The notes beneath the pieces were generated by a model that searched no databases, had not been told where the DNA came from, and saw nothing but the letters and a program-made list of their open reading frames with translations. Positions 19,352 to 27,329 of a stretch of DNA of 64,000 bases are shown piece after piece. The DNA is from Kofleriaceae bacterium (GTDB lineage Bacteria > Myxococcota_A > Polyangia > Haliangiales > Haliangiaceae), in NCBI GenBank assembly GCA_022842285.1, contig JALHPV010000002.1, positions 15,597 through 79,596 on the forward strand. Direction: 5' to 3'. Within the stretch, counting starts at the first letter, position 1, and each line of letters starts with the position of its first letter. The translations under genes were made by a program, and so were the position numbers.

Positions 19352-20707
19352 ATGCAGCACGTGGTCATCATTGGCGGCGGGTTCGGTGGGCTCGCAGCCG
19401 CGCGCGCGCTCGCGAAGGCTCCGGTCCGGATCACGTTGCTCGACCGGCGCAATCACCACCTGTTCCAGCCGCTCCTCTATCAGGTGGCGACGGCGGCGCT
19501 GAACCCGAGTGATATCGCCTACCCGATCCGCAGCGTCGTCGCCGAGCAGGACAACGTGCGGGTGCTGCTGGCCGAGGCGAAGAGCATCGACCCCACGGCG
19601 CGCACCGTCACGCTCGACGATGGCTTGCTCGAGTATGACTTCTTGATCGTCGCCACCGGCGCGACGCACTCGTACTTCGGCAACAACTGGTCGGCGGTCG
19701 CACCCGGGCTCAAGACCGTCGAGGACGCGCTCGAGATCCGGCGGCGCATCTTCCTCGCCTACGAAGCGGCCGAGCGCGAGGCGGATCCGGTCGCCCAGCG
19801 CGAGTGGCTCACGTTCGGGGTCGTCGGGGCGGGGCCGACCGGTGTCGAGCTCGCGGGAGCCCTCGGCGAGATCGGGCTGCAGACGCTCGTACATGATTTT
19901 CGCACGATCGACTCGACGGACGTGAAGGTCCTGCTCTTCGAGGGCACCGATCGCGTGCTGCAGGCGTACCCGCCCAAGCTCGGCGAGGCGGCCAAGCGCT
20001 CCCTCGAGAAGCGCCACGTCGAGGTGCGGTTGAACACGCGCGTGGTCGGCATCGACCCGCACGGCGTCACCATCAAGGACGCGACGGGTGAGCACCGCAT
20101 CGGCATGCGCACCGTGCTGTGGGCGGCGGGCGTGCAGGCGTCGCCCCTGGCGGCGAGTCTGGGCGTCCCGCGCGACAAGGCGGGCCGCGTGATCGTCGAG
20201 CCCGATCTATCGATCCCGGGCCACCCCGAGGTGTTCGTCATCGGAGACCTCGCGCTCATGACGAGCAAGGGCGCGCAGGTGCCAGGCGTCGCGCAGGGCG
20301 CGCTGCAAGGCGGCAAGCACGTCGCGAAGCAGATCGCGGCCGAGGTGCGCGGCACACCGGCGCGGAAGCCCTTCGCCTACTGGGACAAGGGCAACATGGC
20401 CACCATCGGTCGCGCCTCGGCGGTGGCAGCGACGAAGCGGGTCGCGCTCAGCGGCTTCTTGGCCTGGCTCATGTGGTGGGCCGTCCACATCTTCTTCCTC
20501 GTCGGCTTCAAGAACCGCTTCGTGGTGATGTTCTCGTGGGTGTCGTCATGGCTCTCGTACAAGCGCGGGGCGCGCCTCATCACCGGCGACGTCGGCGCCT
20601 TGCCCCGCCTCGAATCGATCGCGCCCGACGGGCAGCCGTCGATGCCCGCCGGCGCGGAAACCGTCGCGTTCAGTGAATCCGACGGAAGTGCAGCATCTCC
20701 TGGCTGA
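19352..20707 (+). CDS. ndh: Type II NADH:quinone oxidoreductase (NDH-2)
   Basis: The sequence shows VVIIGGGFGGLAAA, HHLFQPLLYQVATAAL, a second dinucleotide fold VVGAGPTGVELAG, and a C-terminal membrane-association helix. Confidence 0.9.
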   Translation: MQHVVIIGGGFGGLAAARALAKAPVRITLLDRRNHHLFQPLLYQVATAALNPSDIAYPIRSVVAEQDNVRVLLAEAKSIDPTARTVTLDDGLLEYDFLIVATGATHSYFGNNWSAVAPGLKTVEDALEIRRRIFLAYEAAEREADPVAQREWLTFGVVGAGPTGVELAGALGEIGLQTLVHDFRTIDSTDVKVLLFEGTDRVLQAYPPKLGEAAKRSLEKRHVEVRLNTRVVGIDPHGVTIKDATGEHRIGMRTVLWAAGVQASPLAASLGVPRDKAGRVIVEPDLSIPGHPEVFVIGDLALMTSKGAQVPGVAQGALQGGKHVAKQIAAEVRGTPARKPFAYWDKGNMATIGRASAVAATKRVALSGFLAWLMWWAVHIFFLVGFKNRFVVMFSWVSSWLSYKRGARLITGDVGALPRLESIAPDGQPSMPAGAETVAFSESDGSAASPG

Positions 20708-21335
20708 CCAGGGTGCCGCTTTCGATCGTGATCTTGCGCGTCGCGATCACCGGCATGCCGCCGGGATTGGGCGCGAAGTTCATCTGGAAGGCAGTGTCTT
20801 TCAGGCAGTCGAGCAGCTGATCCTGGTTCTCGATCGTCGTGCCGTCGCTGTCGATGCCCGGCGCCTCGACGAGGGACTGACCGCGCTTGCTGACGACGTT
20901 CCACGTCGCCATCACCGTGCCCGACACGCCGTTGCTGAACCGCGAGATGCACTCGCGCACCTGCGGCTCGACGGTCTCCATCGCCGTCCGCAAGGTGGCC
21001 TTGGTCGCGACCGGATCGTTGCTCGTCGGAGGGTCGTCATCGGGGTCGCCGGCGAACGCCTTGTCGGCGGGCGACTCGTTGACCACCAAGGGCGCGGGCT
21101 CGACCGGGGCGCTCTTGGCGGTCTTCGCCGCCACGGCCGCCCGGGGCGTGCGCGTGCCGGGGACAATGGTGGGCGGTCCGGGCGCTTGCTCGCGCAGGCC
21201 CGGCGGGGCCGCGACCGGCTTGACCGTCGCCATCGGCTCGGCGTGCGTGTCCTCGGCGAGCAGACCCTTCAGCACGACGAGCAGCACGAGCACCAGGCCG
21301 CCAGCGATGGCGATGAGTGCTCCAAGTCCCTTCAC
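20670..21335 (-). CDS. Single-pass membrane-anchored protein with a Pro-rich linker and a TonB-C/AgmX-like C-terminal domain
   Basis: The N-terminal TM is GALIAIAGGLVLVLLVVL. A Pro/Ala-rich spacer leads to a roughly 100-aa globular C-terminus. The gene lies 19 bp downstream of the HEAT-repeat gene on the same strand. Confidence 0.55.
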   Translation of the reverse strand: MKGLGALIAIAGGLVLVLLVVLKGLLAEDTHAEPMATVKPVAAPPGLREQAPGPPTIVPGTRTPRAAVAAKTAKSAPVEPAPLVVNESPADKAFAGDPDDDPPTSNDPVATKATLRTAMETVEPQVRECISRFSNGVSGTVMATWNVVSKRGQSLVEAPGIDSDGTTIENQDQLLDCLKDTAFQMNFAPNPGGMPVIATRKITIESGTLVSQEMLHFRRIH

Positions 21336-21354
21336 GTCCGTGACCTTGCCACGG

Positions 21355-24264
21355 TCACGCCAGAGCGACCAGGTCTTCGAACGCGGTGTAGTAGCTCTTC
21401 CGGAACGCTGCCAAGGTGGCAGCCCCCGCGCTCGCCCGGTGGGTGACGAGGTTGCGGACGGCGGCGAGGGTGTGGAGCCGGTGGGCGAGGGCGACCGTGC
21501 GCTCGTTCGCCTTGGCCTCCTTGCCGCCGAGCTTGAACAGGTTCTTGAAGCCCGTCGGGTGATCCACCGCGAACAGCACCAGCATGCGGGCCCACTCCGT
21601 GACGGAGAGCGGCGAGTCGAGGCGCTTGCGGCGGTGCTCCTGGAGCTCGCGCACGGCGTTCGTGATCGCGCGCAGCGGGATCTCGACCTTGGCGCCCCCG
21701 ACCTCCGCCGGATCGCGCCACTTTGGCTCGAGCCAGCGCGCGTAGCTGCCCCAGCTGCCGCCGATGACGCGATCGACGTAGTCGAAGAGCATCCCGGGGT
21801 CGCGCTGGAGACCGGCGAGGCGCGGCCCGAGGAAGGCGTGGACGTAGTTCTCGAGCACCTTCATCCACAGCGTGATGGGCGGCGAGAGATCCGCGTCCAG
21901 CGCATGCGCGCTGGCGTTTCGATCGTCAGTCCTCGCGGCTTCGCCGCTGCGGAGGGCCTGACCCGTCGACTGGAATAACGACTCCGCCGTGCGGAGACTG
22001 CGGATCATCGCATCGAAGCCGGAGAGCTTCGTCATCTGCGCGAAGCTCGGGAACGCGGACGTGATCTCGCCGTCGACGTCGATCGGCGCGGGGGCGGCAC
22101 TGGTGCTCGCCGACGTCTCGATCTTCAGGCGCAGCAATGGTTCGAAGGCCGGATCGTCGGCGTCCGTGCGGCGTAGCGCGGCGTCGATGGCGGGACCGAG
22201 CGCGGCGGCATGTGGACGCCCGATCGTGATCGCGGCGGCGACGGTGCCACGCGCCGTGGGATCGCCATCACCAGCGACGAAGGCGATCGCTTCGGCGAGG
22301 GACTTCGCCGTGCCGAGCCGCAGGAGGCCGGTGACGGCGCGCTCGTGAACGGCCGGGTCGTCGTCTCGCATCGCGTTCAGCAGGACGGCTTCGCTGCTCG
22401 GGTCGGCGATGCGCCCCAGGGCGGCGATCGCGGCTCCGCGGACCGCAGGCGCGTCGTCCTCGGTGAGCGGCGTGATCACGCCCGCGGGCACCGCGCCGCC
22501 GAGGATGCCGGCGAGCTCTGCGCCCACCTCGCGCAAGCGCGGCTCCGGAGCTGCGATCAACTGCGACGCGCGCCCCGCGAGTGACGCCACGACCTTCACC
22601 TCCGGCGCGGTGGCGACGAGCGCGGTGACGGCGGCGCCGAGGACCCGCGGATCCTCTTCCTTCTTGATGAGCGCCACGAGCTCGGCCGCCGTCGCGGGGA
22701 GCGCGAGCTCGGCCAGCGCCACGTAGGCCGCGAGACGCAGGTCCGACGGCTCCGTCGCCACGCAGCGACGCAGCAGCACCGGCGCGAGCTCGGTGAGCCC
22801 GAGGTTGCCCGCGACGTAGGCCGCACGGCGTCGCACCATGGGGGCTTCGTCGTCGAGCATCGGCGCGATCACGGGGCCCATCACGCTGATCTGGCCTGGA
22901 TCCGTGCCGAGGCGCTGCCGCTTCGCCGGCAACTCGTCCTCGTCATCGATCGGCGGCAACACGATCGCGGCCGAGCTCAGGGCCGCCACGGCGGTCGGGC
23001 TGGGCGTCGAGGACTTCGCGGGCCCGGCCCCTCCGGTCGAGCGCCCGCCGAGCTGCAGGGCCCACAGCAGCGCGCCACGGATCGCGCTGGACGGTGACCC
23101 CGCCAGATCGCCGAGGCGCTCCACGACCTCCGTGCCGCTCGCGAACGCCCCCATCGCCTGGATGGCGGCGGCGCGAATCTGCTCGTCAGCCGTCTCGCGA
23201 TGCGCGAGCTCCGACAGCGCCGAGCGCTCCCACGGCTGATCCGCCTCGATCGCACCGACGGCGCGCGAGCGCACCTCGACGTCGAGGCCGGGCCGCTCGG
23301 CGACGCCGAGCAGGTACCGCGTGATCTCCGGATCGCGGAGCTCGCCGAGAATCTGCACCACGCCGCGCGGATCGTCCGCGAGCAGCACTTCGGCCTGTTC
23401 GAGGACGTCACTCACCGCGAGCGTGCGCAGCCTCCGGGCGAGCGCCGCCCGCACCGCACGATCAGGCTCGCCGAGGGCCACAAGGAAGCGCCCGGCCGCA
23501 TCGCGGTTGCGCTCGTCCTCGAGGGCGCGCGCCGCGAGGCGCGATGCGAAGCGGATCTCGGCGTCGTCGTGGCGCGCGAGGCGCCGCAACATGGGCAGCA
23601 CCTCCAGCGCGCCCAGCTCCGCGAGGTATCGCACCGCCGCGATCTGCACCTCGGGCTCGAGATCCTGGCCGAGCACCACGAGCGCCGCGTCGCGGGCCGC
23701 GGGCGACCGGATCTCCGTCAGCGCCGTGAGCGCGGCCGCCGCCTCCATCGCGTCGCCCATGATGAGGGGCACGAGCCGGTCGACCGCGCTCATCGCGCCC
23801 ATGCGCCCCAGCGCCCCGATAGCCGCGCGCCGCAGAGCCGGTGGAGACGTCTCGACGATGAACCCGGCGACCGCTTCCTCGAGCGCCGGGAATCCAAGCC
23901 CCCCGGCCGCCTGCAGCGCCGAGGCGACGATCGTCGGATCGCGGTCCGACAGCCGCCGGTGCACGTACGGCAGGAGCCAGATGTTCCGGAAGCCGCGCCC
24001 CATCGCACCGAGGACGCCGCGCCGGTCGGCGGCCGTATCGACGAGTCGCGCCGCCTCGAGCAGCGCGAACGCCGCGCGCTCTGCCGCCTCCCAGCTCGCC
24101 CCCAGCGCCCGCCCGGCCAGGTCTCCCAGCAGTCGGCAGGCATCCAGTCGATGCGCCCGCGTCGATGCCTCGAGGGCGGCGACGGCGAGCACTGCCACCG
24201 CCTCCGCCGGGTTCCCCTCACCATGCTCCAGCCTCGTCCTGAGTGCCCCCGGACTTTCGATCAT
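21355..24264 (-). CDS. HEAT/PBS-lyase-repeat protein with a distinct C-terminal alpha-helical domain carrying an R-N-x3-H (HEPN-like) motif (969 aa)
   Basis: The ATG at 24262-24264 starts the gene. HEAT-like units recur (RRAAIGALGRMG, VRRRAAYVAGNLG, VRGAAIAALGRIADPS). The last roughly 200 aa are non-repetitive and end in HTLAAVRNLVTHRASAG. The upstream 75 codons of the track ORF were rejected. Confidence 0.75.
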   Translation of the reverse strand: MIESPGALRTRLEHGEGNPAEAVAVLAVAALEASTRAHRLDACRLLGDLAGRALGASWEAAERAAFALLEAARLVDTAADRRGVLGAMGRGFRNIWLLPYVHRRLSDRDPTIVASALQAAGGLGFPALEEAVAGFIVETSPPALRRAAIGALGRMGAMSAVDRLVPLIMGDAMEAAAALTALTEIRSPAARDAALVVLGQDLEPEVQIAAVRYLAELGALEVLPMLRRLARHDDAEIRFASRLAARALEDERNRDAAGRFLVALGEPDRAVRAALARRLRTLAVSDVLEQAEVLLADDPRGVVQILGELRDPEITRYLLGVAERPGLDVEVRSRAVGAIEADQPWERSALSELAHRETADEQIRAAAIQAMGAFASGTEVVERLGDLAGSPSSAIRGALLWALQLGGRSTGGAGPAKSSTPSPTAVAALSSAAIVLPPIDDEDELPAKRQRLGTDPGQISVMGPVIAPMLDDEAPMVRRRAAYVAGNLGLTELAPVLLRRCVATEPSDLRLAAYVALAELALPATAAELVALIKKEEDPRVLGAAVTALVATAPEVKVVASLAGRASQLIAAPEPRLREVGAELAGILGGAVPAGVITPLTEDDAPAVRGAAIAALGRIADPSSEAVLLNAMRDDDPAVHERAVTGLLRLGTAKSLAEAIAFVAGDGDPTARGTVAAAITIGRPHAAALGPAIDAALRRTDADDPAFEPLLRLKIETSASTSAAPAPIDVDGEITSAFPSFAQMTKLSGFDAMIRSLRTAESLFQSTGQALRSGEAARTDDRNASAHALDADLSPPITLWMKVLENYVHAFLGPRLAGLQRDPGMLFDYVDRVIGGSWGSYARWLEPKWRDPAEVGGAKVEIPLRAITNAVRELQEHRRKRLDSPLSVTEWARMLVLFAVDHPTGFKNLFKLGGKEAKANERTVALAHRLHTLAAVRNLVTHRASAGAATLAAFRKSYYTAFEDLVALA

Positions 24265-24294: not shown

Positions 24295-24705
24295 GTGTCT
24301 TTGTGTCCTCCCGTCCGCTTCGCGATTCCCATCACCGCGGTGGCCGCCGATATCGACGAGCTGGGACACGTCGGAAACCAGGTCTACCTGCGCTGGGTCC
24401 TCGACGTCGCCATGGCCCACTCGCGCGCCCGCGGCTGGGACCACCCCGAGTACCGCGCCTTCGGCTCGATCTTCGTCGTGCGCCGTCACGAGATCGACTA
24501 CATCGCGCAGGTTCGCGAGGGCGAGACTCTCACCGCCGAGACCTGGGTCGACTCCTGGCGCCCCGCCTCGTGCATCCGCAAGTCCGAGCTCCGCCGCGGC
24601 GACACCGTCGTCTGCCGCGCTGCCACCACCTGGGCTCTCATGTCCCTCTCCTCTGGCCGCCCGCAGCGCATCCCGGACGAGCTCATCACCCTCTTCACCA
24701 CCTGA
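24295..24705 (+). CDS. Hotdog-fold acyl-CoA thioesterase (4HBT/YbgC-like, 136 aa)
   Basis: This is the tail of the 501-aa track ORF: FAIPITAVAADIDELGHVGNQVYLRWV...FVVRRHEIDYIAQVREGETL. The start is inferred at GTG 24295, with TTG 24301 as an alternative. Confidence 0.7.
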   Translation: MSLCPPVRFAIPITAVAADIDELGHVGNQVYLRWVLDVAMAHSRARGWDHPEYRAFGSIFVVRRHEIDYIAQVREGETLTAETWVDSWRPASCIRKSELRRGDTVVCRAATTWALMSLSSGRPQRIPDELITLFTT

Positions 24706-25399
24706 CCGCCGCGATCGCCTCCCGCAGCCGCTCCGGCTGCTCCAGCGTGGGATCGTGCCCCGACCCCTCGATCACGGTCAGCGCCGCCGGTAGCCCCCGC
24801 GCGATCGCCAGGTACTTCGCGTCGTCCCCTCCGACGATCAGCCGCACCCGCTCATCCACCACCCCCCGGTAGTCCGGCATCTCCGCGAGTCCCATCGTCT
24901 CGAGGCTCCGCGCCAACCCCTCGGCATCCAGCCCCCGCCGCGCCGCCCGCCGCGCCGCCCGCCTCCCCGCGTCCGCCCGCGCCTGCGATGCGAACAGCGC
25001 CTGCGCCTCCCACGCGTCACCGAACGCCTCGATCCCTTGCTCCCTCAGCATCGCCGCCCACCGCGCATCGCCGGCCCGGCGCTCCGCACGCTCCCCCTCG
25101 CTCGCGAGCCCCGGGTTGACCCCGATCAAGATCGCCCGCGGTACGAATCCCATCGCGACCAGCCCCAGCCCCACGCGTGCCCCGAGCGAGTACCCGACCA
25201 CGACATCGACAATCCCGATGTCCTCGGCAACTGCGTGGAGCTGTCCATTCCACGTCGACGCGCTGACCGGGGGCGGCGCCCCTTGATGTCCGGGATTCGG
25301 ACGGTGCCCGGGCAGCCACGCCCTCGCCGCATCCGGCGGCGCGATCCCGTCCCACACCGCCGGCGTGCCGGCAAAGCCGTGGACATAGACCGTTCGCAC
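24695..25399 (-). CDS. menH: Alpha/beta hydrolase, MenH-like (SHCHC synthase-like, 234 aa)
   Basis: The GTG at 25399 gives VRTVYVHGFAG. The nucleophile elbow is GYSLGARVG. The blocks GVNPGLASEGERAERRAGDARWA and WEAQALFASQ resemble E. coli MenH. Only the C-terminal part of the 452-aa track ORF was kept. Confidence 0.6.
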   Translation of the reverse strand: MRTVYVHGFAGTPAVWDGIAPPDAARAWLPGHRPNPGHQGAPPPVSASTWNGQLHAVAEDIGIVDVVVGYSLGARVGLGLVAMGFVPRAILIGVNPGLASEGERAERRAGDARWAAMLREQGIEAFGDAWEAQALFASQARADAGRRAARRAARRGLDAEGLARSLETMGLAEMPDYRGVVDERVRLIVGGDDAKYLAIARGLPAALTVIEGSGHDPTLEQPERLREAIAAVRW

Positions 25400-25496
25400 C
25401 CGCCTATCCGAGCACGAATGCGCTCGGTCCGCCGGACCCTGGGCTGGTAGGTGTCGCAGGGGGTGTCGCAGGGGTCGGACCCCTGCGACACTGGCG

Positions 25497-27329
25497 TTAC
25501 TCCACGACGTCGACGCCGCGCTTGGCCAGCTTCTGAACCGTCTTCTTGCCGGCGGGGGACAGGGCGACCTGCCAGAGGCCGAGGGTCCGTAGATTGGGCA
25601 GGGCCAGGAGGGCGACGGGATCCTCGATGTCGGTTGCTGACAGGTCGAGGGCGGTGAGGGAGGTCCGGCGGGCGAAGGCAGGGAGCAGGGAGTCATCCGT
25701 GTCCTGGCCGTAGAGGGAGAGGGTGCGCAGGTGGGGCCAGGCATCGAGATCGGTGATGCCGGAGCGGATGCGGGTGTTGCCGATGGCCAGCTCGGTGAGG
25801 CCGGTGAAGGAGCGAAGGGTCGGGATAGCGAAGTCGTCGACGTTGGTGTCGGTGAGGTGGAGGGTGTCGAGGTCGACGAGCGGCGCGAGGGCGACGAGGG
25901 TGGTCGAGGTGACGGAGGTGCTGTCGAGATAGAGGCGCTCGAGCTTGGTGAGGGCGGCGAGGGCGCGGAGGGCAGGGTCGGACGCTTCGGTCTTGGAGAG
26001 GACGAGTGTCCGGAGATCGGACAGCTTGGCGATGCGGGCGACGGTGGGATCACCGATGCGGTCCTTGGCGACGCCGAGGGCCTCGAGGGCGGGGAGGCGA
26101 TCGAGGATGGCGAGGCCGGCGTCGGTGACGGCGGTCCGGGACAGCCAGAGCTCGGAGAGGACGGGGGAGACGGGGCCGGCGAGGGCGGCGTCCGTGATCC
26201 AGGTGCCGTCGAGGCGGAGGCTGCGGAGCTTGGGCTTGGCGAGGAGGAGCGCGGCCGCGTCGTCGTCGACGGGGGTGTCGGCGAGGTCGATGTTGCGGAG
26301 CTCGGCGAGGGCGGTGAGCTTGCTGATGGTCGCCTTGGTGATGGCGGTGCCGGCGAGGTGCACCGTCATGAGCAGCGGGAGGGAGGCGAGGGGCAGCCCG
26401 GTGGCATCGGTGATCTTGCTGCCGGAGAGGCCGATATCGACGAGGGCGGGCGCCTTGGCGAGCCAGGCGACATCGGTGTCGGTGGGCTTGTAGCCGACGA
26501 GGTCCGAGGCGTTGAAGCGGATGAGGCCGGGGGCGAGGGGCGCGAGGGTCGCGAGCTCCTTGCCGACGTAGGTGTGGTCGATGAAGAGCTGGCGCGGGTG
26601 GAGGGTTCGCAGCGCGGCGATGGTCTGGGCGCCGATCTCGGTGCCCCCCAGGTCGATGATGTCGAGGTCGGTGAGCTGACCCAGGGCCGCGCCGCCGGCA
26701 TCGGTGAGACGGGTGCCGGCGAGCACGAGGGTCTTCAGGTGCATCTGCGCGGCCACGGTCTTCGCACCGGCGTCGGTGACGGGCGTGTCCTCGAGATCGA
26801 GCGCGAGCACGGTGTCCCCGAGGTTCGCGGCGATCCAGCCGAGCGCCGCGTCATCGACGAGGGTGCGCGCCACGCCGAGCCGGTCGATGCGCAGGTCGGG
26901 TGACAGCTTCTGGATGGCTCCGGCATCGAGGTCGGTGCCGTCGAGGAGCAACGCCTTCAGGTCAGGGAGGTCATGCAGCTGATCCGCCCAGGCGGCGATC
27001 GCCTGACCGCGCAGCGACAGGCCGGGGACGCGTTCGGACCGCACGATGCCGAGCAGCGCGGTGAAGGTCGTGGCCGTCAGCGGCGCGATGGGCTCGACGT
27101 ACCAGGGACCCGTCGGGAGCGCGGTGAGGCCCGGAAGCTCGCCGACCTCGACTTCACCCTCGGGGAGCCAGGCCATCACCCGGACGCGAACCGTCCACGG
27201 CGACGCGGGCGCGGTCTCGACGGGCGGGGCCACGACCGGGGGCGGGGCCTCGACGACCATGGGGGGACGGGGCGGGGCCGGCTTCGTACATCCCGCCACG
27301 AAGGCGACCAGCAGAGGGGCGCGCAGCAT
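25497..27329 (-). CDS. Leucine-rich-repeat lipoprotein (610 aa)
   Basis: It has the lipobox LLVAFVAGC, followed by about 20 RNI-type LRR units (L..L.L..T.ITDAGL..L..L..L). Confidence 0.75.
   Translation of the reverse strand: MLRAPLLVAFVAGCTKPAPPRPPMVVEAPPPVVAPPVETAPASPWTVRVRVMAWLPEGEVEVGELPGLTALPTGPWYVEPIAPLTATTFTALLGIVRSERVPGLSLRGQAIAAWADQLHDLPDLKALLLDGTDLDAGAIQKLSPDLRIDRLGVARTLVDDAALGWIAANLGDTVLALDLEDTPVTDAGAKTVAAQMHLKTLVLAGTRLTDAGGAALGQLTDLDIIDLGGTEIGAQTIAALRTLHPRQLFIDHTYVGKELATLAPLAPGLIRFNASDLVGYKPTDTDVAWLAKAPALVDIGLSGSKITDATGLPLASLPLLMTVHLAGTAITKATISKLTALAELRNIDLADTPVDDDAAALLLAKPKLRSLRLDGTWITDAALAGPVSPVLSELWLSRTAVTDAGLAILDRLPALEALGVAKDRIGDPTVARIAKLSDLRTLVLSKTEASDPALRALAALTKLERLYLDSTSVTSTTLVALAPLVDLDTLHLTDTNVDDFAIPTLRSFTGLTELAIGNTRIRSGITDLDAWPHLRTLSLYGQDTDDSLLPAFARRTSLTALDLSATDIEDPVALLALPNLRTLGLWQVALSPAGKKTVQKLAKRGVDVVE

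Follow-up and report, generated by a model that had tools for sequence, protein, structure and literature searches.

An invariant R-N-x3-H motif in the C-terminal helical domain of a Kofleriaceae HEAT-repeat protein, a candidate divergent HEPN-type ribonuclease domain

Introduction

HEPN domains share a core of two alpha-hairpins, with frequent inserts between helices 2 and 3, and carry an Rx4-6H motif where core helix 3 ends and the loop to helix 4 begins, in which N, D or H directly follows the Arg; a second conserved acidic motif, Ex3[KR], lies in helix 2 near Rx4-6H (PMC3710099). Here, we analyzed the gene of a 969-amino acid (aa) HEAT-repeat protein in a 64,000-nt window (the whole stretch of DNA studied, whose numbering is used throughout) from the contig JALHPV010000002.1 of a Kofleriaceae bacterium (assembly GCA_022842285.1). 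The original prediction had read this protein as a HEAT array that ends in a HEPN ribonuclease (RNase) domain and is coupled to a membrane protein encoded downstream. We consider it quite possible, if short of probable, that the C-terminal domain, borne by a HEAT scaffold, is a new and highly divergent RNase domain of the HEPN type, and not a toxin or abortive-infection (Abi) module.

Fusions of HEPN domains to arrays of TPR, Sel1 or ankyrin repeats have been described, including the LA2681-TPR, C6orf70/DUF4209-TPR and DUF4145-Sel1 combinations (Table 1 of PMC3710099). The LA2681, C6orf70/DUF4209 and DUF4145 families likewise join a HEPN-type domain to a helical repeat array; however, their arrays are TPR or Sel1 and not HEAT, they lie mostly in restriction-modification or defence neighbourhoods, and they have Pfam models, none of which matches the C-terminal domain studied here. 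No HEAT-HEPN fusion was described in the literature searched, in agreement with the original prediction. The closest local resemblance is to HepT (DUF86, PF01934; the MntA-HepT toxins), in which an R-N-h-h-x-H(-R) motif similarly ends the penultimate helix and is followed by a short loop and the last helix. Nevertheless, HepT is a stand-alone toxin of ~130–150 aa encoded beside a nucleotidyltransferase (MNT) antitoxin and is common on plasmids, whereas the HEAT protein has no MNT neighbour and is not found on plasmids; the C-terminal domain further differs from HepT by an insert of ~68 aa, an extra N-terminal helix and the fusion to ~720 aa of HEAT repeats, and the similarity between the two is not significant.

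RNase L and Ire1 offer a conceptual likeness, drawn from established knowledge and PMC3710099, as a repeat or sensor region in these chromosomal, non-mobile systems precedes a C-terminal HEPN RNase activated by dimerisation. They differ from the HEAT protein in being eukaryotic and in placing a kinase or pseudokinase between their repeat and RNase parts; their KEN domain is circularly permuted (PMC3710099), unlike the C-terminal domain, and no sequence or Foldseek similarity was found between the C-terminal domain and RNase L or Ire1. Csm6 (5yjc), the top Foldseek match of a trimmed model described below, is an all-alpha HEPN RNase, but it comes with a CARF sensor domain and in a CRISPR context, and the HEAT protein has neither.

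Results

An invariant R-N-x3-H motif ends the penultimate helix of the C-terminal domain

The predicted order of HEAT repeats followed by a non-repetitive helical C-terminal domain was borne out. Pfam HEAT_2 matched the protein with E = 8.8e-42 (141.7 bits against a cut-off of 27.7, in seven stretches), which places it among the HEAT-repeat proteins, and matches were present in all three thirds of residues 1–760. For the C-terminal domain of ~230 aa, AlphaFold2 run on a 61-sequence alignment gave an all-alpha model with a predicted local distance difference test score (pLDDT) of 89.9 and a predicted template modelling score (pTM) of 0.88. Adding 739 to the domain numbering, which is used for the helices in Table 1, gives the protein numbering. 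A trimmed 176-aa model (pLDDT 91.7) agreed with the full model in the long core helices a1, a2, a5 and a6, while the insert helix at domain residues 126–140 was reduced to two short fragments. In the secondary structure of both models, a1 and a2 are joined by a turn of two residues and followed first by the insert of ~68 aa and then by a5 and a6, an order compatible with the two-hairpin layout of HEPN domains.

The motif R937-N938-L-V-T-H942, with R943 next to it (context AAVRNLVTHR), was located exactly at the predicted coordinates. According to DSSP, the helix that carries it ends at H942 or R943 in both AlphaFold2 models, and a loop of 4–5 residues then leads to the last helix. Judged on secondary structure only, this is the position of the HEPN motif at helix 3's end and the beginning of the loop to helix 4; furthermore, the residue after the Arg is polar, as in HEPN domains, and this N938 is present in all sequences compared. 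Conservation was computed on 80 sequences, namely the window and 79 related loci with identities down to ~54%. R937, N938, H942 and R943 were invariant in 80/80 sequences, so that the conservation of R937 and H942, which the original prediction had named as a test of its claim, proved to be complete. The whole helix LAHRLHTLAAVRNLVTHR that carries the motif was almost wholly invariant in the same set.

Conservation also extended to other parts of the domain. In helix a1, E805, Y807 and H809 of the segment LENYVHA were 100% conserved, and this E/Y/H cluster may form a second part of a putative functional site. Further invariant blocks were RKRLDSPLSVTEW (residues 879–891) within the insert and VDH (900–902). 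Between the closest relatives, the C-terminal domain showed 95–98% identity, compared with 90% for the HEAT array, and no other part of the protein is as constrained; with a ratio of nonsynonymous to synonymous substitution rates (dN/dS) of 0.03–0.06, the domain is under strong purifying selection. As a separate observation, RKRLDSPLSVTEW looks like a Ser phosphorylation site of the basophilic, proline-directed kind.

HEPN is the best guess for the domain, and profile or structural similarity stays below threshold

Several results weigh against the HEPN assignment. The protein is rich in Arg and contains seven Rx4-6H matches, when ~4 are expected from its composition, and an RNx3H pattern turned up in 1.9% of shuffles of the C-terminal domain. 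In addition, the same domain contains a second RNx3H (R782-H787), carried by a strain-specific 18-aa insertion, LRSGEAARTDDRNASAHA, which lies in a loop within the region of lowest pLDDT. This second copy is fortuitous, because the insertion is missing even in relatives whose domain is 95–98% identical (L083 and L084), as well as in all other homologues, which shows that chance can produce RNx3H in a high-GC protein rich in Arg. Therefore, composition and shuffling make R-N-x3-H weak when taken alone, but its conservation in 80 sequences changes the picture. The acidic HEPN motif Ex3[KR] of helix 2 also has only a weak counterpart, the moderately conserved D828-x2-D831-R832, while the invariant acidic residue E805 (Ex3H) lies in helix a1 and not in a2.

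Sequence and structure searches added to these doubts, as the similarity to HEPN that the original prediction had proposed to look for fell below every accepted threshold in Pfam, Foldseek and hhalign. Although HEPN families are numerous in Pfam, no Pfam HEPN model matched any of 20 family members or artificial cores from which the insert had been deleted (E <= 10), and the best matches in these family scans were noise (TetR_C_33, E = 0.2; REF, E = 0.017). Profile searches of the PDB with the whole domain and with its last 58 aa similarly gave only noise. In Foldseek searches of the PDB, the best match of the 230-aa model had E = 0.65, and one HEPN entry, 3jrt, was found at rank 45; for the trimmed 176-aa model, the top match was the HEPN RNase Csm6 of Staphylococcus epidermidis (5yjc), with an E of 3.3, a probability of 0.08 and a template modelling (TM) score of 0.27, values indistinguishable from noise. 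The TM scores of the two PDB searches did not exceed 0.27. Foldseek of the full model against BFVD returned nothing.

The profile-profile comparison by hhalign was limited to one HEPN family, represented by eight real DUF86/HepT proteins from plasmid records; a DUF86 consensus served only as a probe to find real HepT sequences in the PDB and in plasmids. The alignment placed the RN..H motifs of the two families in register (score 20.3, P = 0.021), with an hhalign probability of only 2%. In shuffle controls, which were run on an earlier 6-sequence HepT alignment (score 19.8), none of 150 column-shuffled templates reached that score, and 3 of 120 did so when the 7-column motif block was kept intact. 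Most of the hhalign score therefore comes from the motif that had prompted the HEPN hypothesis, with only a faint signal beyond it. Locally, the resemblance is striking, as a haloarchaeal HepT has FRNILAHRYG where the HEAT-protein family has VRNLVTHRAS. Overall, the motif and the secondary-structure layout of the predicted HEPN domain held up and statistical homology did not, and HEPN is our best guess from the sequences and predicted structures, statistically unproven.

The lack of any significant fold or profile match, to HEPN or to anything else, also fits a different explanation, in which the C-terminal domain is a new, non-HEPN helical fold that caps the HEAT solenoid for protein binding or dimerisation, with the conserved stripe of Arg, Asn and His as its binding surface and not as a catalytic site. 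HEAT proteins are typically scaffolds, and the whole a5 helix, LENYVHA, RKRLDSPLSVTEW and VDH are equally invariant, so that conservation is not focused on Rx4H. Nevertheless, an invariant R-N-x3-H-R at the exact HEPN position is unlikely to arise by chance, given the 1.9% per domain before invariance and position are considered, and binding surfaces are rarely 100% identical in their polar residues across 54–80% divergent orthologues with a dN/dS as low as that of this domain. We regard such a cap as somewhat unlikely.

The domain is confined to single-copy, syntenic HEAT proteins of Myxococcota

In searches covering 5.8 billion and 1.8 billion proteins and 185,579 species genomes, the domain was found only in metagenome-assembled genomes (MAGs) labelled Kofleriaceae, Haliangiales or other Myxococcota. 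A phmmer search against the 1.8 billion representatives gave 42 clusters at E <= 0.001, and the best 120 matches of a profile search of the 5.8 billion proteins were all strong family members. Among the matches listed, no source name lay outside Myxococcota, and the searches for remote homologues did not connect the domain to any annotated family. At E <= 10, the domain matched no model of Pfam, NCBIfam, PADLOC or PHROGs, and a match to a known non-nuclease family, which would have spoken against the original prediction, was likewise not found.

The domain always stands at the C-terminus of a HEAT protein of ~900–1000 aa. Many database homologues, of 200–370 aa, look like stand-alone domains because MAG orthologues are split into partial gene calls; they were rejected as such, being metagenome fragments or split calls, and stop-to-stop open reading frames (ORFs) of ~900–1000 aa in nearly all complete loci indicate that the HEAT fusion is universal. 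In two MAG contigs (L001, 5849-8990; L002, 5795-8609; related loci are denoted by L and a number), gene calling breaks the orthologue into overlapping or fragmentary pieces, probably because of frameshift errors.

In 80 genomes, the gene is present as a single copy and in synteny; every one of these 80 loci is from a different assembly, and the domain was not found in plasmid and phage collections. GC content is ~70% across the whole window, with no compositional break at the HEAT gene. Horizontal transfer and a defence island were therefore rejected, given the GC content, the synteny and the lack of the domain in the plasmid and phage collections. Similarly, the family lacks the marks of a toxin-antitoxin or abortive-infection system, as it has no conserved partner, no patchy or mobile distribution and no PADLOC system match.

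The downstream 221-aa gene is not a conserved partner

As predicted, the next gene lies 19 nt downstream on the same strand, with no terminator-like site in between, and the two genes may be co-transcribed in the window. Its product of 221 aa has one hydrophobic stretch of ~22 residues at the N-terminus, as read from the sequence, consistent with the single membrane pass of the original prediction. The TonB-C/AgmX-like C-terminal domain that had been assigned to it was not recovered, as its C-terminal 125 aa had no Pfam or NCBIfam match at E <= 10, the TonB_C and AgmX/PglI models included; the sole match of the protein was a weak one to GltJ (E = 5.6e-4), which covers the transmembrane and Pro-rich part. 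A GTGACC/GGTCAC inverted repeat, intact in L083 and with one substitution in L084, spans the HEAT stop codon and the spacer and is not terminator-like. The 221-aa gene and the gene of an NDH-2 protein (ndh2) converge with a 38-nt overlap (20670-20707), which is kept in L083.

A HEPN toxin or abortive-infection RNase that forms a sensor-effector or toxin-immunity pair with this membrane protein would account for the shared strand, the short spacer without a terminator and the preservation of this arrangement in the four closest relatives, in two of which inspection confirmed the order HEAT gene, 19 nt, 221-aa gene and convergent ndh2. Synteny, however, largely refutes the pair. By tblastn, the 221-aa protein was found in none of 82 related loci, and its only homologues among 5.8 billion proteins were four, one of them identical and all from very close relatives. 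In L004, the place of its gene is taken by a lipoprotein gene on the opposite strand, and in L007 by one with a Cys-rich sequence, GFA-like by eye, although the C-terminal domain of these two loci is ~80% identical to that of the window. Moreover, the dN/dS of the 221-aa protein (0.24–0.33) is ~5–8 times that of the C-terminal domain, which suggests a real but fast-evolving gene, and the protein has no recognisable domain, while the HEAT gene is single-copy and syntenic, has normal GC content, is absent from plasmids and phages, and gave only a generic HEAT match in PADLOC. Such a pair is thus scarcely credible to us. The 221-aa gene was inserted at the genus level between the HEAT gene and ndh2 and belongs to no conserved module; as a conserved partner it was rejected by synteny, and the sensor- or scaffold-coupled RNase module of the original prediction falls with it.

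A thioesterase gene is the most widely conserved neighbour

Among the neighbours of the HEAT gene, conservation is widest for a gene that encodes a thioesterase of the 4HBT/acyl-acyl carrier protein (ACP) type. It adjoins the HEAT gene in most loci of the group with 60–80% identity, usually in a divergent orientation, and in the window the two starts, that of the thioesterase being inferred, lie 30 nt apart. The L001 and L070 copies are found directly downstream of the HEAT gene and share its strand, and that of L001 (8987-9427) overlaps the HEAT stop codon. In the group with 54–59% identity, the neighbourhood differs in most loci and the thioesterase is mostly not adjacent. The preservation of adjacency in two arrangements hints at a functional link.

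Such a link would suit a metal- or cofactor-binding helical bundle (putative ligands E805/H809, D901/H902 and H928/H931) with an enzymatic or sensing role tied to acyl-thioester metabolism. The domain does have five invariant His together with an invariant Glu and Asp, which are spread over different helices, and H928, H931, N938 and H942 would share one face of a5, as deduced from the 3.5-residue periodicity of the sequence. We nevertheless find this explanation improbable, since Pfam scans gave no match to DinB, hemerythrin, ferritin-like or other metal-bundle families, none of these folds was among the Foldseek matches, and the thioesterase is not beside the gene in most of the 54–59% identity group.

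In the window, the region upstream of the thioesterase holds genes for a 610-aa leucine-rich repeat (LRR) protein with a lipoprotein-like N-terminus and for an alpha/beta hydrolase. A minority of the related loci, L007, L011, L027 and L067 among them, likewise have at least one of the two genes upstream of the thioesterase. In two distant loci (L075 and L078), Ser/Thr kinase-like ORFs, with N-termini judged by eye, were found within a few kb of the HEAT gene.

Gene boundaries and further features of the window

The HEAT gene starts at the ATG at 24264, and the equivalent Met opens the homologues L004, L007 and L084; a longer ORF initiated by GTG extends to 24489, but the starts of the homologues match the ATG instead. 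The product of ~105 kDa would be cytoplasmic in the proposed HEPN reading. A low-complexity insertion rich in Ser, Pro, Ala and Gly, which is specific to the window, interrupts the HEAT array in its middle and is missing in L004 and L007. An Rfam scan of the window found zero RNA elements. The coordinates of all features are compiled in Table 1.

Table 1. Positions of the HEAT-repeat gene, its protein features and neighbouring elements in the window
Feature	Position (nt)	Strand	Residues	Basis or remark
HEAT-repeat protein gene with C-terminal HEPN-like domain	21355..24264 (stop codon included; 21358-24264 without it)	-	969 aa	ORF and translation
HEAT-repeat array	22105..24264	-	~1-720	Pfam HEAT_2; matches in each third of 1-760
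Low-complexity insertion in HEAT array	22882-23049	-	406-461	Window-specific
C-terminal all-alpha domain	21358..22047	-	740-969	AlphaFold2; a0, a1-a2 hairpin, insert (beta-hairpin and two short helices), a5-a6 hairpin
Helix a0			domain 12-39	AlphaFold2 model
Helix a1			domain 55-81	AlphaFold2 model
Helix a2			domain 84-109	AlphaFold2 model
Beta-hairpin of insert			domain 114-121	AlphaFold2 model
First short helix of insert			domain 126-140	AlphaFold2 model
Second short helix of insert			domain 149-159	AlphaFold2 model
Helix a5			domain 178-203	AlphaFold2 model
Helix a6			domain 209-229	AlphaFold2 model
Strain-specific 18-aa insertion with RNx3H R782-H787	21901..21954	-	771-788	Missing in L083, L084 and all other homologues
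L-E805-N-Y807-V-H809-A, helix a1	21835..21855	-		E805, Y807, H809 100% conserved in 80 sequences
R879-KRLDSPLSVTEW-891, loop and helix start within insert	21592..21630	-	879-891	At least 97% conserved at 12/13 positions; loop position from models
R937-N938-L-V-T-H942, candidate Rx4H catalytic motif (R943 next)	21439..21456	-	937-942	Last turn of penultimate helix; DSSP helix end at H942
Spacer between HEAT gene and 221-aa ORF, 19 nt	21336..21354	-		No T-run; same spacing in L083, L084
GTGACC/GGTCAC inverted repeat	21336-21357	-		Spans HEAT stop codon and spacer
221-aa orphan protein, N-terminal hydrophobic anchor	20670..21335 (ORF 20673-21335 without stop)	-	221 aa	Starts 19 nt after HEAT gene stop
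NDH-2 gene	19352-20707	+		Converges with 221-aa gene
4HBT/acyl-ACP-type thioesterase	24295..24705	+		Pfam 4HBT_2, E = 1.1e-11; divergent; start codon inferred
Alpha/beta hydrolase	24695-25510	-		Upstream region of thioesterase
LRR protein, lipoprotein-like N-terminus	25497-27329	-	610 aa	Upstream region of thioesterase

Discussion

In the HEPN reading that we tentatively favor, the C-terminal domains of two molecules would dimerise, as in other HEPN RNases, and R937, N938 and H942, possibly aided by the invariant E805 and H809, would form a metal-independent endoribonuclease site. The HEAT array would serve as a platform for binding, to which a protein or ligand is recruited, or would restrain the RNase, a control formally analogous to that by the ankyrin array of RNase L. 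The gene may then encode an RNase for RNA processing or stress that is specific to the lineage of Kofleriaceae-type myxobacteria; this role is preferred to one as a toxin or in abortive infection because the gene is single-copy, syntenic and strongly constrained and has no conserved antitoxin-like neighbour. By analogy, its function would be closer to that of RNase L or Ire1 than to that of the toxin-antitoxin or Abi HEPN proteins.

A more specific proposal, which we put forward as rather doubtful, is that of a partnerless, vertically inherited HEPN endoribonuclease permanently tethered to a HEAT sensor of ~720 aa, which would follow the logic of RNase L in a bacterium, would serve social myxobacteria in the processing of endogenous RNA or the control of stress and not in defence, and would be too divergent for current profiles, or else that of a new fold converged on the R-N-x3-H site.

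If the domain is not HEPN, the finding would amount to a scaffold protein that carries a lineage-specific domain of unknown function, which is nothing out of the ordinary. If it is an active HEPN RNase, a new family invisible to profiles would join the HEPN superfamily, with the first HEAT-HEPN architecture in the literature searched. Bacteria would then have a HEPN that is fixed in the chromosome as a core gene and lacks an antitoxin, and one would have to ask how its own repeat array silences a potentially toxic RNase. The finding would also open a first way into the function of a protein that is conserved throughout the Kofleriaceae and Haliangiales, which have been little studied.

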